Part shown: in pieces, positions 2,151 to 45,560 of the stretch | Layout of the letters: each line of letters opens with the position of its first letter | Position numbering within the stretch: the first letter of the stretch is position 1 | The notes under the pieces: generated by a model | The model's database searches: none | The model's input: the letters and a program-made list of their open reading frames with translations, nothing else | What the model was told of the DNA's origin: nothing | Assembly (NCBI GenBank): GCA_963590945.1 | Contig: CAVAQZ010000001.1 | Coordinates: 23,220 to 87,219 of the forward strand | Direction of reading: 5' to 3' | Source: Dysosmobacter segnis | GTDB lineage: Bacteria; Actinomycetota; Actinomycetes; Actinomycetales; Bifidobacteriaceae | Length of the DNA stretch: 64,000 bases | Made by a program: the position numbers and the translations under genes

Positions 2151-2912
2151 TCAGATGTTCGGCAGGGTGCGCGGGTCGACGCCTTCCGGCACGATCAGAG
2201 TGCCGCGACGGTGGGAGAAGGAGCTGCGCACGTGCAGCGGCATGTTGAATCGCTGCGCGTATTCCACGCAGCGCAGGGCGAGCACCTTGGAACCGCAGGA
2301 CGACATTTCCAGCATCGACTCGTAATCGATCACCGGAATGCGGCGGGCGGCCGGAACGATTCGTGGATCGGCGGTGAACACGCCGTCGACGTCCGTGTAG
2401 ATCTCGCACACGTCCGCGTTCAGAGCCACCGCGAGCGCCACTGCGGAAGTGTCGGAGCCGCCACGTCCGAGCGTGGTGGCGTCGCCGCCTTCGTTCACGC
2501 CTTGGAATCCGGCCACGATGGCCACGGAGCCCTTATCGAGGGCGCGGCGCACACGATCCGGTTTCACGGCCTTGATGTGTGCGGTGCCGAACTGGGCGTC
2601 GGTCATGAAACCGGCCTGGGAACCGGTGAAGGAGTATGCATGGGAACCGGCCGCATGAATCGCCATGGCGAGCAAACTCATCGAAATACGCTCGCCTGCG
2701 GTCATCAGCATGTCCATTTCGCGCGCGGGCGGGTTGGAATCGATGCTGAGCGCCTGATCAATCAGGTCGTCGGTGGTGTCTCCCATTGCGGAGACCACGA
2801 CGGCCACGTCGTTGCCGGCGTTCTTCGTTTCGATGATGCGTCGGGCCACGCGCTTGATGGATTCTGGGTCGGCTACGGAAGAGCCGCCAAATTTCTGCAC
2901 GATGAGAGCCAC
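2151..2912 (-). CDS. askA: Aspartokinase catalytic domain (no ACT domains)
   Basis: [46 protein letters not shown] start. Confidence 0.95.
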
Positions 2913-3020
2913 AACTTATCCAATCTTCTCAGTGTGTCGTTCGCCTGCGATATGGGCAGGCTGAACGATTATAGGAATATTCCGTTTTGCCGGGTCGCGC
3001 GGCGCCCAGCATACGGAATT

Positions 3021-3623
<603 letters not shown>

Positions 3624-12461: not shown

Positions 12462-13472
12462 CTAAACTCTCCGCACGGGATCTTTCGCTTGGAATTCCCC
12501 GTCCAGGAGATCAAGCCACCGTCCACTTTCCTGAACCTGTTTTCCGTCCCAGGAGGCCAGCGCGCGCCCAGTCAACCGGCCTTCATCCGACTCCAGGCAT
12601 CCGATCTGCGCAAGTCGTCTTTTTCCATCCACCCGTTCAACGTGCAGTACCACATCGAACGCGTCTTCGGCGAGCGCGGCCGTTGCCCTGGGCTCCAGTC
12701 CGGCGAGCAATCCCAGTGAAACCAACCGTGACGGCACCGCGCCCACATGGTTGGCATGCAGGGTGGTCATGCTTCCGCGATGTCCGGAATTCAAGGCTCT
12801 GAGCAGGTCCGCGATTTCAGCCCCTCTGCATTCGCCGACGATTATGCGGTCTGGCCGCATGCGCAATGTCGCCGCGATCAATTGGGACAATCCTATGGCT
12901 CCCGCGCCCTCCATATTGGCTTCGCGGGTTACCAGTGAAACATGGTTGGTATGTTCGATCATGCCGAGTTCCCGTACTTCCTCGACGGTGATGATGCGCT
13001 CCGTCGGCGCGCATTGTTTGAGCAGCGCTTTGAGCAATGTGGTCTTGCCCGCGCCCGTGCCACCGGTTATGAGGATGCTGGTTTGGCGTGCCACCAGCGC
13101 GTTAAGTGCGGGCAGCCAGTTCGAGGGGAACATGCCGTTGTTCGACAATGATCGCAGGCTTGGCCGCGCAACGTCCGGCAGTCGTATGCTGATGGCCGCG
13201 CCTTGTGGAACCAACGGAGCGATGACCGCGTGCACACGCACGCCTTCCACCGTCGACGCGTCGGCGATCGGGCATGCGTCGTCGAGTCTTTTGCCCAGCT
13301 GCGAGCATAATCGCACCGCGAATTCACGGATTGCGTGCGGGCTGGGGAACGGGTGCGAAACGCATGGGGTCATGCCTTGTCCCCAATCCGCCCACACCGT
13401 GCCATCGCAGGTGACGGCAATGTCGGTCACTCCCGGTTCTTCCGCCAACCTGCTAAGGGGACCGAGTTCCAT
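12462..13472 (-). CDS. tadA: TadA/CpaF pilus assembly ATPase
   Basis: GGTGAGKTT Walker A, TVEEVREL, LRMRPDRIIVGECRG, SGHRGSMTTLHA. Confidence 0.93.
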   Translation of the reverse strand: MELGPLSRLAEEPGVTDIAVTCDGTVWADWGQGMTPCVSHPFPSPHAIREFAVRLCSQLGKRLDDACPIADASTVEGVRVHAVIAPLVPQGAAISIRLPDVARPSLRSLSNNGMFPSNWLPALNALVARQTSILITGGTGAGKTTLLKALLKQCAPTERIITVEEVRELGMIEHTNHVSLVTREANMEGAGAIGLSQLIAATLRMRPDRIIVGECRGAEIADLLRALNSGHRGSMTTLHANHVGAVPSRLVSLGLLAGLEPRATAALAEDAFDVVLHVERVDGKRRLAQIGCLESDEGRLTGRALASWDGKQVQESGRWLDLLDGEFQAKDPVRRV

Positions 13473-14532
13473 GTTTTCTCCGCTTGTTTTCCAGCTGTTC
13501 CAATATGAAGTCGGTACATGTTCGAATCGCTTTGGCCGTCGATCTATTGGGATTCCGCAGGCCAAGGCCTTCCAATTGTTCACTGCATAGACGCGCGTCC
13601 GGCTGTATGACGGCCGGGATGTCGCATTCGAGATAGTCTTCCGCTTCTCCGATTTCCGTTATGCCGCGTCCACGCAAGGTGCCTCTGGGCTCGGCTCCCA
13701 CCACCAATATGCGGTTCGCGTCTTCGGCGGATCCGCCTTGCGTCTGGATCGAGGAGCGCAGCATGGTTTTGGCACGCGCCAATCCCAGCACCGTCAGCTC
13801 CACCACAACGATGCGCGCACATTGGTCGAGTTCCGTGACTTCCCGCAGTCCAACGCGCTGCGCCACATCCACGATCACGACATCGCGCACCTGCGAAAGC
13901 GCCTGGACGCAGGCCCTCATATCCCACGATTGCGGATTGCCCGTTTTCCACGGATCGCAGGATAGTATCGGCACGCCATCCCATGAGGGCATCTCCCTCA
14001 ACAACGCCTTGCCGTTCACATTGCCCAACGGAGCGTTGATGTCGCCGAATCGGGTTCCGTCCTCGTTTTCGATTCCCAGCAGCACATCGAGTCCGCCTCC
14101 CTGCAGGTCGGCATCGACGAGCGCGCATGCGGCACCGTATTGAACAAGATTCCGTGCCAGCAGCGACGACAGCGTGCTGACGCCCACCCCCGAAACAGCC
14201 GATTCCACAGTCACCACATTATTCGGCACGTTGTTTGGCGAGGGTCCGAGGTCGCGCAACCCATTACCTCCCGTTCCGTTCGGCCCCGGCGGGCTGTCCG
14301 GCGCCGACGGCCCGGCGGCTCCGACTGGCCCGGTTCCTCCCAACGAGCCTGTTTGGGATGATCCGTACCGCCATCTTTCGTCAGCGGCCCCGTCGGGCGT
14401 GTAGAAACGTTGGGGTGGTGCCTTCCCGTAATCCGCATCGTCGTATCTGAACCTCTGCCGTCCAAGGTCCATCCGCTCAATGTCGGCCTGATCGAATCCC
14501 GCCTGACCGGCGTAACGCATCGTGGTGTTCAT
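13453..14532 (-). CDS. tadZ: TadZ/Ssd (septum site-determining, MinD-like) protein; start uncertain
   Basis: Degenerate Walker A SGVGVST, LVDADLQGGGLDVLLG, VIVD; first gene of the tad operon. Confidence 0.82.
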   Translation of the reverse strand: MNTTMRYAGQAGFDQADIERMDLGRQRFRYDDADYGKAPPQRFYTPDGAADERWRYGSSQTGSLGGTGPVGAAGPSAPDSPPGPNGTGGNGLRDLGPSPNNVPNNVVTVESAVSGVGVSTLSSLLARNLVQYGAACALVDADLQGGGLDVLLGIENEDGTRFGDINAPLGNVNGKALLREMPSWDGVPILSCDPWKTGNPQSWDMRACVQALSQVRDVVIVDVAQRVGLREVTELDQCARIVVVELTVLGLARAKTMLRSSIQTQGGSAEDANRILVVGAEPRGTLRGRGITEIGEAEDYLECDIPAVIQPDARLCSEQLEGLGLRNPNRSTAKAIRTCTDFILEQLENKRRKHGTRSP

Positions 14533-14583
14533 GTATCCGATTGAAGAAGACCGTGCGTCTCGCACGCAACCTGATTCGGCCCC

Positions 14584-14641
14584 TGTGGTCGGAGAACGCG
14601 GGTTATCCACAGTTTCAGCGCGTCACGCAGCCTTATCCACA
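14584..14641 (-). promoter_or_regulatory. Tandem DnaA-box element upstream of tadZ (copy 2)
   Basis: TTATCCACA at 14603-14611 and 14633-14641, preceded by TGTGGTCGGAGAA. Confidence 0.7.
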
Positions 14642-14703
14642 AGCGAATATCGAGAGATCATCCCGCCGAGGACGCGAAACATGTAAAGTCCGGGCAAAAT
14701 CCT

Positions 14704-14737
14704 GGGTTATAGGGTTATAGGGTTATAGGGTTATAGG
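14704..14737. repeat. 8-bp tandem repeat (GGGTTATA)x4
   Basis: Four perfect copies plus GG. Confidence 0.95.
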
Positions 14738-14777
14738 CCAAAATCCTTGAAACTGGTCCATGGAGCCAGACCCGGGA

Positions 14778-14812
14778 CAAAAGAAAAGACCCGCCGAAGC
14801 GGGCCTTTTCTT
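14778..14812 (-). terminator. Rho-independent terminator
   Basis: Minus strand GGCCCGC-TTCG-GCGGGTC followed by TTTTCTTTTG. Confidence 0.85.
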
Positions 14813-14945
14813 CCAAGAATCCGAGAGCAGAATCGCTGCACAACAACATCGTCGTAACGGTAAGTCTATCCAATGCCCGTTCAACGTAACGACCTATCTT
14901 GGCCATACACTCTTTGTGGGCTCTGCTCTTCGGTTGTTCTTGTAC
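14778..14945 (-). ncRNA. Candidate Ms1/6S-like long-hairpin RNA
   Basis: Promoter-like TTGCGA-N16-CATAAT, long closing stem, apical stem, intrinsic terminator, located upstream of ssd/tadZ. Confidence 0.6.
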
Positions 14946-15230
14946 TTCGTAATTATGCTCACTATCGAATCAATCGCAAATCGGAACGCGCGGATGTTCC
15001 GTATTTATCCAAACTGTTTCTTTTCGATTGCGAGAATCACGGAAAATGCACCATCATGTGCGAAACAGACAACGCGTTTGTTAGATTACGTTCGTTTCAG
15101 CCATAAAAACGGCGTGTCGCCATGGCATTTTCCACAACTTTTCCAAAACAAGCAGTCAATTGTAAACTCCCTCTAAATTCTGCGGACTTTTGCGGGCTTT
15201 CACCACATCAAAGGAATAAAGTAGAACACT

Positions 15231-17465
15231 ATGGCACAGATTTTTGACGCACCCTCGAAGGCGATCCTGCGCAGCCAAATAGCTGAGCACATCGCAGAAA
15301 CAGACAAGAACGACAAGCGGGAGCTGCAAGCCGGCGAAGAGCCGCTTCCCAACGACCGCTTCTTCGACCGCGAGCTGAGCTGGCTGAAGTTCAACAAGCG
15401 AGTCCTCGAACTGGCCCAGGATGAAGACCTGCCGATCATCGAACGCGCGAGCTTCGCCGCGATCTTCGCGAACAACCTCGACGAGTTCTTCATGGTTCGA
15501 GTGGCCGGCCTCAAGCGCCGCATCGACACCGGCATCGCCGTCACCGCGGCGTCGGGCCTGAGCCCCCGCCAGCAGCTGCGCGCGATCAGCGAGCAGGCCC
15601 ACCGTCTGCAGGACGAGCACGCCCACTACGTGATCAACCACATCCTGCCGGACCTGGCCAAGGAGAGAATAGTCCTTCTGAGCTGGGACAAGCTCACCGC
15701 AGCGGAGCAGGAGCGTCTTTCGCGCTACTACCGCCAGCAGGTGTTCCCCGTCCTGACGCCGCTCGCCGTGGACCCGGCCCACCCGTTCCCGTACATTTCC
15801 GGCGGTTCCATCAACCTCGCCGTGTTGGTGGAGAATCCGACTTCCGGAAAGTCCCACTTCGCACGAGTGAAGATTCCCGGAAACCTGAACCGTCTCGTAC
15901 CGGTCGACGATCTGACCGACGACGATTCCGCCGAGGTCCGCTACGGCTTCATCACCATGGAGAACCTGATCATCGCCCACCTGGAATCCCTGTTCCCGGG
16001 CATGATCATCAAGGAAGCCCGTTCCTTCCGAGTGACCCGTAACGAAGACATCGACGTTGAAGAGGACGATGCGGAGAACCTGCTCAACGCCATGGAGAAG
16101 GAACTGCTGCGCCGACGTTTCGGACCGCCGATCCGTCTGGAGATCTCCGACGAAACCAGCCCGTTCCTCTCGCAGCTGCTCGCCGACCAGCTGCGCGTGA
16201 GCGCCGACGAAGTGTACCGTCTTCCGGCCCCGCTTGACGCGACCGTGCTGTTCGAGCTCGGCGGCATCGACCGTCCGGACCTGAAGTACCGTTCCTTCGT
16301 GCCGACCACGAACCGTCAGATCGCCGAGGTGGAATCGTCCCGCGCGCAAGACATCTTTGCGGCGATTCGCGAACGCGATATCCTCCTGCATCACCCGTAC
16401 GATTCGTTCTCTACCTCGGTTCAGGCGTTCCTAGCGCAGGCCGCCGCCGATCCGAAGGTGCTGGCCATCAAGCAGACGCTGTACCGCACGTCCAGCAACT
16501 CGCCGATCATCGACGCGCTCATCGACGCCGCCCATGCCGGCAAGCAGGTGCTCGCCTTGGTTGAGATCAAGGCGCGTTTCGACGAGGATGCCAACATCGC
16601 GTGGGCCCGCAAGCTCGAACGCGCGGGCGTGCACGTGGTGTACGGCATCGTCGGCCTGAAGACGCACTGCAAGCTGAGCCTCGTGGTCCGTCAGGAAGCC
16701 GACGGACTTCGCCGCTACTGCCACGTCGGCACCGGAAACTACAACCCGAAGACCGCGCGAATCTACACCGATCTGGGCATTCTGACCTGCGACCCGGTCG
16801 TCGGCCAGGACATGACCCGACTGTTCAACCAGCTGTCCGGCTATGCTCCGAAGTCAAGCTTCCACCGTCTTCTGGTCGCCCCGAGAACCGTCCGTTCCGG
16901 CCTGATCCAGCGCATCCGTCGCGAAGAGGACGCCGCACGCGCGGGCAAGGAAGCGTGGATCAAGATCAAGGTCAATTCCGTGGTCGACGAGAAGACCATC
17001 GACGCTTTGTACCGCGCAAGCCAGGCAGGCGTGAAGATCGACATCGTGGAACGTGGCATCTGCGCGCTCAAGCCGGGCGTTCCCGGACTCTCGGAGAACA
17101 TCCGCGTGCGTTCCATCCTCGGCCGCTTCCTCGAGCACAGCCGTATCTACGCGTTCGCCAACTCCGACGGCCCGCAGATCGGCGAGGGACCGGCATCCGG
17201 TCCGGAAGTGTGGATCGGTTCCGCCGATCTGATGCACCGCAACCTGGATCGTCGAGTCGAGGCTTTGGTACGTATCACCGCACCGGAGCAGATCGATGAG
17301 CTCATCAAGTACGTGGACCTGCAGATGGCCGATTCCACCGCATCCTGGCATATGGAGGCCGACGGCACCTACGTGCGCCACGCGAAGGATGAGGAAGGCC
17401 GACCGCTGGTCGATTGCCAGGAATACCTGATCAAGAGGCATTCCCGCCGCCCGTCGACGCACTGA
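15231..17465 (+). CDS. ppk: Polyphosphate kinase 1
   Basis: [60 protein letters not shown]. Confidence 0.97.
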
Positions 17466-45487: not shown

Positions 45488-45560
45488 TACCCCCCGTGGG
45501 ATTCGAACCCACAACCCACGACTTAAAAGGACGCTGCTCTAACCGTTGAGCTAGAGGGGC
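45488..45560 (-). tRNA. tRNA-Lys(TTT)
   Basis: GCCCCTCTAGCTCAACGGTTAGAGC...CTTTTAA anticodon loop...GGTTCGAATCC; 73 nt; CCA not fully encoded (CCG). Confidence 0.95.

Follow-up and report, generated by a model that had tools for sequence, protein, structure and literature searches.

A 64,000-nucleotide (nt) stretch of contig CAVAQZ010000001.1 (assembly GCA_963590945.1, family Bifidobacteriaceae; hereafter, the window) contains, between a tadZ-like gene and the polyphosphate kinase gene ppk, a self-contained RNA gene at positions 14778 to 14945 of the minus strand, with a sigma-70-like promoter, a structured core of ~135 nt, and an intrinsic terminator. It represents a previously undescribed family of structured RNAs that is absent from Rfam 15, and we are highly confident that it is a real, stand-alone, trans-acting small RNA (sRNA) whose family is limited to the Bifidobacteriaceae. 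An earlier reading of the window from its letters alone (the sequence-only reading) had called an unannotated RNA gene of ~170 nt at this site, and the element proved to be conserved and structured, with a predicted length of ~168 nt. Bifidobacteria are major gut commensals and probiotics whose RNA biology is almost unexplored, and whatever the role of this RNA, it constitutes a new structured RNA family across a bacterial family. Its parts are as follows, with the basis for each in parentheses.

14778-14945, minus strand: predicted primary transcript of ~168 nt, core plus terminator (fold z score, BLASTN, covariance model, contigs of RNA libraries)
14974-14979, minus strand: -35 box TTGCGA (consensus scan)
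14952-14957, minus strand: -10 box CATAAT (consensus scan; genus-wide BLAST conservation starts here)
14921-14942, minus strand: 5' strand of the closing helix P1, divided into P1a (14937-14942), P1b (14930-14933), and P1c (14921-14928) (covariation)
14914-14918, minus strand: CACAA of the invariant GCCCACAA motif, with a possible helix P2 to UUGUG at 14839-14843 (conservation)
14890-14905, minus strand: small hairpin P3, UGGCC / GGUCG (covariation)
14850-14886, minus strand: apical stem-loop P4, CGUUGAACGG ... CCGUU-A-CGACG (covariation)
14832-14849, minus strand: nearly invariant 3' strand AUGnnGUUGUGCAGMGAU, forming junction and internal loop (alignment conservation)
14814-14832, minus strand: 3' strand of the closing helix P1 (covariation and inverted repeat)
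14778-14812, minus strand: intrinsic terminator, with its stem at 14781-14812, a UUCG loop, and a U tract to 14778 (fold and inverted-repeat search)

The promoter, present exactly as the sequence-only reading had placed it, joins the two boxes across a 16-nt spacer and is the sole promoter-like site that a consensus scan detects between 14300 and 15500, a region in which shuffled sequences lead one to expect 0.6 ± 0.8 such sites. Among the 82 homologous loci that we aligned, a -10-like hexamer is present in 79 (CATAAT in 47 and GATAAT in 20), and a TTGnnn hexamer lies 16 to 19 nt 5' of it in 64. The predicted start at ~14945, ~7 nt past the -10 box, is where it had been proposed and agrees both with the -10 spacing and with contigs from RNA libraries of a relative that end at ~14935 to 14939. 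At the other end stands the UUCG-loop terminator with its U tract, likewise read correctly from the start: the hairpin GGCCCGC-UUCG-GCGGGUC (arms 14781-14794 and 14799-14812) is followed by UCUUUUCUUUUG and the end at 14778. A hairpin plus T run begins 0 to 5 nt past the core in 80 of the 82 loci, and the stems vary among species with compensating changes.

Structure and a lack of coding potential set this interval apart. The 168-nt RNA has a minimum free energy of -70.4 kcal/mol, against -44.9 ± 4.3 kcal/mol for shuffled sequences (z = -5.96; 0 of 200 shuffles equal it), and the core without the terminator gives a z score of -3.65. The absence of a credible open reading frame (ORF), asserted earlier, is borne out: no conserved ORF was found in the 82 homologues, whose longest sense ORFs starting with ATG have a median length of 28.5 amino acids, and single-base indels in the P3 loop put any reading frame out of register, even though the sequence downstream of them is conserved. 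Three ORFs of the window overlap the RNA (two of them on the opposite strand), and none has a Pfam match above the curated cut-off.

To define the distribution of the RNA, we combined nucleotide searches with two covariance models, one (R1) built from 64 core sequences and the other (R2) from 82. BLASTN with positions 14740 to 15000 of the window returned one match each in 127 of 151 genomes of the genus, with matches spanning the region from the -10 box to the terminator. Model R1 identified one full-length copy in 123 of 151 sampled Bifidobacteriaceae genomes, including 117 of the 128 high-quality ones, and in 9 of 17 genera; the eight genera with no match are represented by small or fragmentary genomes of 0.7 to 1.8 Mb. 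When R2 was applied to 151 genomes sampled from the order, all 8 matches fell within the Bifidobacteriaceae, and none of the 143 genomes from 23 other families yielded a match (E value up to 1, stricter filters). With filters off, the covariance model found nothing in 14 tadA loci of other Actinomycetia (best E value, 4.2). An exact scan of 185,579 species genomes with a 27-letter degenerate core motif recovered 118 stretches; among the 80 of these that were listed, nearly all belong to Bifidobacterium, Alloscardovia, or Scardovia, and about nine are isolated in unrelated taxa, which we take as chance matches or mis-binning. One genome of the family (G213) carries, beside its full copy, a second, partial match to model positions 14 to 127 (contig C50, 2062-2171; 63.5 bits).

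RNA libraries offer a weak hint of a discrete transcript, whose strand, ends, and level are unreadable from assembled contigs. Fourteen RNA-type runs were listed, each sharing 4 to 8% of the words sampled from a 1.2-kb stretch; we draw no conclusion on habitat from these shares. We compared four of the runs, from four studies, all of which supplied contig sets of a single related species that is ~90% alike. A contig covers the RNA in all four. In run X10, a separate contig of 157 nt corresponds to ~14779 to 14935, almost exactly the predicted transcript, and contigs of runs X1 and X7 that enter from the ppk side stop at the terminator, 22 and 51 nt past 14827. A contig of run X5 spans both the RNA and the start of tadZ, for which read-through or DNA is a possible source.

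Fold and conservation of the RNA

Covariation was assessed on an 82-sequence alignment (A3) fitted to the covariance model, with 34 modeled pairs and 500 column shuffles. Standard pairs occupy 88.3% of cells, compared with 80.1% in column shuffles and 26 to 54% when partners are slid by 1 to 3 columns, and changes on both sides occur in 22 of the 34 pairs, a number reached by none of the 500 shuffles. This is the check on homologues that the sequence-only reading had called for. Because of this fit, and because the sequences share ancestry, the figures are biased in favor of the structure; two observations, however, are independent of the model fit. RNAalifold on a plain MAFFT alignment recovers P3, P4, and the terminator with compensatory changes, and the closing helix shows simultaneous double changes between lineages, from GAGCAGA/UCUGCUC to GGUGGAA/UUCCGCC. 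The supported elements are thus P1, P3, P4, and the terminator, within a core whose length ranges from 127 to 155 nt across the 82 homologues.

The pairing of the 5' arm with the 3' arm into a closing stem, proposed from the letters, is visible as an inverted repeat in the window (14922-14938 / 14815-14831) and is backed by covariation. Of the five pairs of P1a, 4 show double changes, and 93.7% of cells are paired; in P1c, all 5 pairs do (e.g., AU in 41 and GC in 38 sequences), with 97.3% of cells paired; and P1b is paired in 70.4%, in a part where the alignment is uncertain. P3 is paired in 93.3%, with double changes in all five of its pairs. P4 reaches 97.6%, its two upper pairs showing 24 and 22 double changes and its lower part being nearly invariant, and the 3' side of its loop holds a conserved GACUUA. 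With a closing stem of ~18 bp and a terminal (apical) stem of 10 bp, the rod measures ~135 nt. The AACGG/CCGTT pairing claimed for the apical stem is backed by covariation, but a claimed GTCGT/ACGAC pairing was wrong: GGUCG is the 3' half of P3, and ACGAC lies in the lower apical stem, paired with CGUUG. A GCCC/GGGC pairing that appears in single-sequence folds was rejected because it competes with the covarying upper part of P4 and is not kept in distant genera.

Conservation extends well into the unpaired regions. Across the family, there is almost no variation in the 3' strand GUUGUGCAGAGAUUC or in the motif GCCCACAA; GUUGUG is invariant in all 67 rows of a separate alignment (A1), CAGAGAUUC is kept at a level of at least 90%, and GCCCAC forms one invariant C-rich motif at the base of the junction. 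The P2 helix (CACAA/UUGUG), also proposed by the sequence-only reading, can form in almost all sequences; since both of its sides are almost invariant throughout the family, covariation neither supports nor refutes it. In single-sequence folds, GUUGUG pairs instead with the CRAC of lower P4, making two conformations conceivable, if speculative.

Orientation and neighboring genes

The RNA lies beside the tad cluster, between tadZ and ppk, as had been described from the sequence. The adjacent genes in the window are as follows, each identified with Pfam.

13453-14610, minus strand: tadZ-like ParA/CpaE ATPase gene, the downstream neighbor
12462-13583, minus strand: tadA, past tadZ and followed by tadB and tadC
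15231-17465, plus strand: polyphosphate kinase gene ppk, the divergent neighbor

A NUDIX/histidine-phosphatase gene (Pfam) also occurs on the ppk side of the RNA. Given that the RNA sits upstream of tadZ on the same strand, a 5' leader is a serious rival to an independent gene, and we therefore compared the arrangement across the 82 homologous loci. The arrangement of the window, with the cassette transcribed in the direction of tadZ or divergently from ppk, is seen in 45 loci; 36 show the inverted arrangement, with transcription in the direction of ppk and divergent from tadZ; and in the remaining locus, neither gene is present within the flank examined. The inverted form accounts for all 33 loci of the eight other genera and for 3 loci of the window's genus, and the RNA keeps its own -35/-10 boxes and terminator in both orientations. 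With ppk present within the examined flank in 73 of the 82 loci and tadZ adjacent in 62, the steady neighbor of the RNA in the family is ppk rather than tadZ.

The downstream gene is similarly inconstant. There is no tadZ within 1.5 to 2 kb in 20 of the 82 loci, and in the ten of these loci that were examined, the co-oriented downstream genes encode a MIP channel, PAP2, a metallophosphoesterase, GDPD, TetR, or an ABC1 kinase; the rest of the ten show a convergent gene there or, in a single locus, lack any ORF of at least 110 amino acids that starts within 1.4 kb. The constant association with one class of downstream gene that would mark a cis-acting leader is thus not seen in these loci. Two opposite orientations, together with a widely varying downstream gene, argue that the RNA is not a leader and acts in trans, and a structured element whose sequence is retained whichever unrelated gene lies ahead, in either direction, is best read as a gene in its own right. 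A -10-like hexamer occurs ~2 to 3 nt before the ppk ATG in the window (15210-15233) and in two loci with an inverted RNA (L096, 2190-2233; L058, 1800-1830), and its position abutting the start codon suggests a leaderless or very short-leader ppk mRNA. A search of the window for flanking inverted repeats able to drive inversion returned only one 12-nt pair of 83% identity (14778-14789 / 15019-15030), which we take as chance.

As a control, we examined the sequence that precedes the tadA orthologue in each of 14 genomes from other families of Actinomycetia. Because tblastn with TadZ of the window located this protein in only 1 of the 14 outgroup loci, positions were judged relative to tadA. The 6C RNA is present at gathering score in 8 of the 14, and a ninth match scored 46.5 bits against a cut-off of 47 bits (Rfam; loci L168, L169, L171 to L173, L175, L176, L178, and L179, all co-oriented). 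In these loci, 6C lies ~1.3 to 1.7 kb upstream of the tadA start and co-oriented with it, which places it just upstream of the ssd/tadZ-like gene. Ms1 occurs in one outgroup locus (L173, 235 bits), whose order is tadA (2-466, minus), an ssd-like gene (463-1617, minus), 6C (1694-1769, minus), a HAD hydrolase gene (1871-2803, plus), and Ms1 (2868-3168, plus). The sequence-only reading had assigned the RNA to the syntenic position of Ms1, and this stands in part: the tad/ssd neighborhood is the same, but the place immediately before tadZ, on the same strand, belongs to 6C, and Ms1 lies past the HAD gene, pointing away. The inverted form of the other genera likewise points away from tadZ and is the Ms1 orientation of L173 minus the HAD gene. 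It may be that the Bifidobacteriaceae lost 6C from the site that the new RNA now occupies.

Comparison with 6S, Ms1, and 6C RNAs

Rfam 15, searched over the window at gathering score, contains no match to the RNA; the only match at this score in the whole window is a tRNA gene at 45488-45560 on the minus strand. When the threshold was relaxed to E values up to 10 over positions 14400 to 15400, 12 weak matches appeared, most of them on the terminator hairpin, the best being BASRCII26 at 24.6 bits against a cut-off of 218 bits. We also searched the source genome (95% complete, in 93 contigs) with individual models. 6S (RF00013) gave no match at E values up to 1, with positive controls in 5 of 14 named genomes; Ms1 (RF02566) gave at best 16.3 and 15.3 bits, both elsewhere in the genome, against a gathering score of 162 and the L173 control at 235 bits; and 6C (RF01066) gave none, with controls of 49 to 89.5 bits in 8 outgroup loci. 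Across the family, 6C was found in none of 41 Bifidobacteriaceae genomes, in a search of limited sensitivity (a Corynebacterium control fell below the cut-off). The source genome is therefore one in which neither 6S nor Ms1 is detectable with the Rfam models, but membership of the RNA itself in either family, which a covariance search against Rfam was proposed to check, did not hold: the tests made place it outside Ms1, 6S, and 6C.

Its likenesses to known RNAs and its differences from them are as follows.

(i) Ms1 (RF02566; MTS2823 in Mycobacterium tuberculosis and scr3559 in Streptomyces) is also an actinobacterial stand-alone sRNA in the tad/ssd neighborhood. Its consensus has a similar topology: a long closing stem leads to a junction from which a small hairpin and a longer arm project, and the terminator follows that stem immediately. 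Ms1 binds the RNA polymerase core without the primary sigma factor and accumulates in stationary phase. It differs in being roughly twice the length, in having a 5' hairpin, which the RNA of the window is without, and in lying beside a HAD-IB hydrolase gene, whereas no HAD-IB gene stands between the RNA and tadZ; the predictions of a length below that of Ms1 and of a missing hydrolase neighbor were accurate on both counts.

(ii) 6S falls into a similar length class, and in both RNAs the 5' and 3' ends pair and the rod is interrupted by a large internal opening. The 6S rod measures ~160 to 200 nt, its large central bubble separating the closing stem from a long terminal stem, and 6S binds the sigma-A holoenzyme and templates pRNA. 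Unlike 6S, the RNA carries its own terminator hairpin.

(iii) 6C is approximately half as long as the RNA, which in the window holds the 6C slot, just upstream of ssd/tadZ and on the same strand; this orientation is matched in 45 of the 82 loci and reversed in 36. Each of the two hairpins of 6C has a loop of six or more cytosines, whereas the P3 and P4 loops of the RNA have no cytosine runs.

(iv) CoRP of Corynebacterium offers, in the excerpted text of PMC11077062, a precedent for a lineage-specific RNA-polymerase-associated RNA where 6S and Ms1 are lacking. As described there, CoRP is 516 nt long, is cleaved, and lies next to tRNA genes, and we liken it to the RNA by that description only.

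PMC9130861 reports neither 6S nor Ms1 in Bifidobacterium, and it attributes the lack of Ms1 to intergenic regions of only 20 to 100 nt in what is otherwise the Ms1 gene neighborhood. Its excerpted methods select a long intergenic region (>300 nt in the Streptomyces step) with set annotation phrases on both flanks, and the synteny phrases of its Tables 1 to 3 are HAD hydrolase (HAD-IB), CpaE-like in some genera, and chromosome partitioning. Since set phrases were required on both sides, we infer that a ppk flank would escape that survey. In a supplementary table of the B. breve transcriptome, Bbr_0130 is a HAD hydrolase and Bbr_0131 a DedA protein, and the only entries in Table 2 of that study (PMC5746004) are RNase P, tmRNA, 4.5S, and three riboswitches, all known to Rfam. 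If the tad locus of this strain starts at Bbr_0132, these two genes would represent the short-region synteny noted in PMC9130861.

According to PMC11077062, Bifidobacterium bifidum has no known 6S or Ms1, and RNA immunoprecipitation sequencing (RIP-seq) could reveal a unique polymerase-associated RNA; taken together, the excerpts of PMC9130861 and PMC11077062 indicate that the Ms1 research group expects an as yet unknown RNA of this kind in Bifidobacterium. Four conserved motifs of our RNA gave no match in two supplementary files of the B. animalis sRNA paper PMC4338058 (11 predicted sRNAs), a comparison by motif only, and a 2026 review (PMC13750123, as excerpted) regards bifidobacterial sRNA candidates as largely unvalidated. 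No description of the RNA was found in the literature searched, most subscription journals being outside its scope. The RNA is a concrete candidate for the predicted polymerase-associated RNA, with exact coordinates, a covariation-backed structure, and a covariance model that covers nine genera.

Candidate functions

Binding to RNA polymerase is our leading guess, ahead of a base-pairing role like that of 6C, although a tentative one. A sigma-70-type promoter drives a predicted transcript of ~168 nt whose two ends pair in an extended, irregular closing helix; beyond it lies a junction that bears the small hairpin and the apical stem-loop, and the intrinsic terminator comes directly after the helix. 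The gene itself, its conservation, its fold, and its independence from the genes on either side are established; its product would be a protein-binding RNA, most likely in the form of a compact functional counterpart of Ms1 and 6S that binds RNA polymerase, buffering or sequestering it, e.g., in stationary phase. The near-invariant bases in internal loops and stems across the family suggest a protein partner. RNA polymerase is favored on three grounds, each of them indirect: 6S and Ms1 are undetected in the source genome, the RNA lies in the tad/ssd neighborhood, and its topology resembles that of Ms1. A more elaborate version is somewhat more doubtful: the RNA would be the missing polymerase-binding RNA of the Bifidobacteriaceae, a miniature of Ms1 or 6S of ~170 nt and the shortest of them, which would have arisen or shrunk at an ancestral tad/ssd-6C-Ms1 locus and in which GUUGUG could switch between CACAA and the lower apical stem.

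Several observations weigh against a polymerase-binding RNA. The slot next to tadZ is that of 6C, a base-pairing RNA, and no match in sequence or structure to 6S, Ms1, or any Rfam family was found at E values up to 10. At ~168 nt, against ~230 to 310 nt, the RNA is shorter than any known Ms1, and its rod of ~135 nt with an apical stem of 10 bp falls below the shortest 6S rod known from the excerpts of PMC9130861 (~160 nt). If P2 forms, what resembles a bubble is a three-way junction. The RNA contig of run X10 has a depth of 6.9, compared with 156 to 202 for neighboring contigs, contig depth being a poor measure of abundance and small RNAs being lost in standard libraries. Finally, R2 has no match in four genomes of the genus, including a complete one (G098), and only a weak match (45.6 bits) in a fifth; the absence of a copy from a few genomes indicates an RNA that is widespread but dispensable.

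Less probable than the binding of RNA polymerase, and of modest likelihood, is a base-pairing regulatory sRNA that would replace 6C in function and pair with mRNAs via conserved single-stranded segments, e.g., GCCCACAA, the CAGAGAU internal loop, or GACUUA of the apical loop. The RNA of the window lies directly upstream of tadZ on the same strand, where 6C occurs in 9 of the 14 outgroup tadA loci, 6C itself was found in none of the 41 family genomes and is undetected in the source genome, and the C-rich GCCCAC is invariant; the 6C search has the limited sensitivity noted above, however, the 6C model does not match, the hairpins with cytosine loops are absent, 36 of 82 loci have the RNA facing the other way from 6C, and conservation extends over almost the whole molecule, helices included, beyond any seed.

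We assign the same modest likelihood to a structured RNA with some other partner or activity, e.g., as the RNA component of a different ribonucleoprotein or as a binder of a small molecule in trans. A fold backed by covariation, a possible three-way junction, and invariant loop bases in an RNA that resembles no described family, is restricted to one bacterial family, and, being lost in a few genomes, is not essential would all be compatible with it, but nothing specific indicates such a partner, and no conserved neighboring protein gene was seen besides ppk and tadZ.

A cis-acting 5' leader or attenuator (riboswitch-like), serving the tad operon here and ppk in other genera, is improbable. Three-way junctions are common among aptamers, the co-oriented gene often starts ~50 to 350 nt past the terminator, and the X5 contig of the relative bridges the RNA and tadZ. 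The same cassette nevertheless faces tadZ in 45 loci, ppk in 36, and unrelated or convergent genes elsewhere; the strong terminator, kept in 80 of 82 loci, is free to vary in sequence, with no conserved antiterminator noticed by eye (no systematic test was made); a -10-like hexamer stands just before the ppk ATG in the inverted loci read; and contigs of two other runs stop at the terminator. The terminator hairpin scans as a terminator on the plus strand too, but a chance stem-loop or a mere bidirectional terminator is already contradicted and of negligible likelihood, given a family-wide 135-nt core with covariation and its own promoter, and given that tadZ and ppk are divergent, so that nothing between them needs terminating.

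Some minor features lie outside the RNA itself. A 7-bp hairpin (CGGAACG...CGTTCCG, 14982-15001), which the scan lists as terminator-like on the plus strand, is directly upstream of the -35 box. Between the RNA terminator and tadZ, a perfect 8-nt tandem repeat, GGGTTATA, is present in 4.2 copies at 14704 to 14737; BLAST matches in other genomes stop at the terminator, and the spacer with the GGGTTATA repeat has none. In the complete genome G098, where the RNA is absent, the region upstream of ppk (552-1398 of locus L183) holds Gp49-like (PF05973) and HTH_3 genes, which look like a toxin-antitoxin pair.

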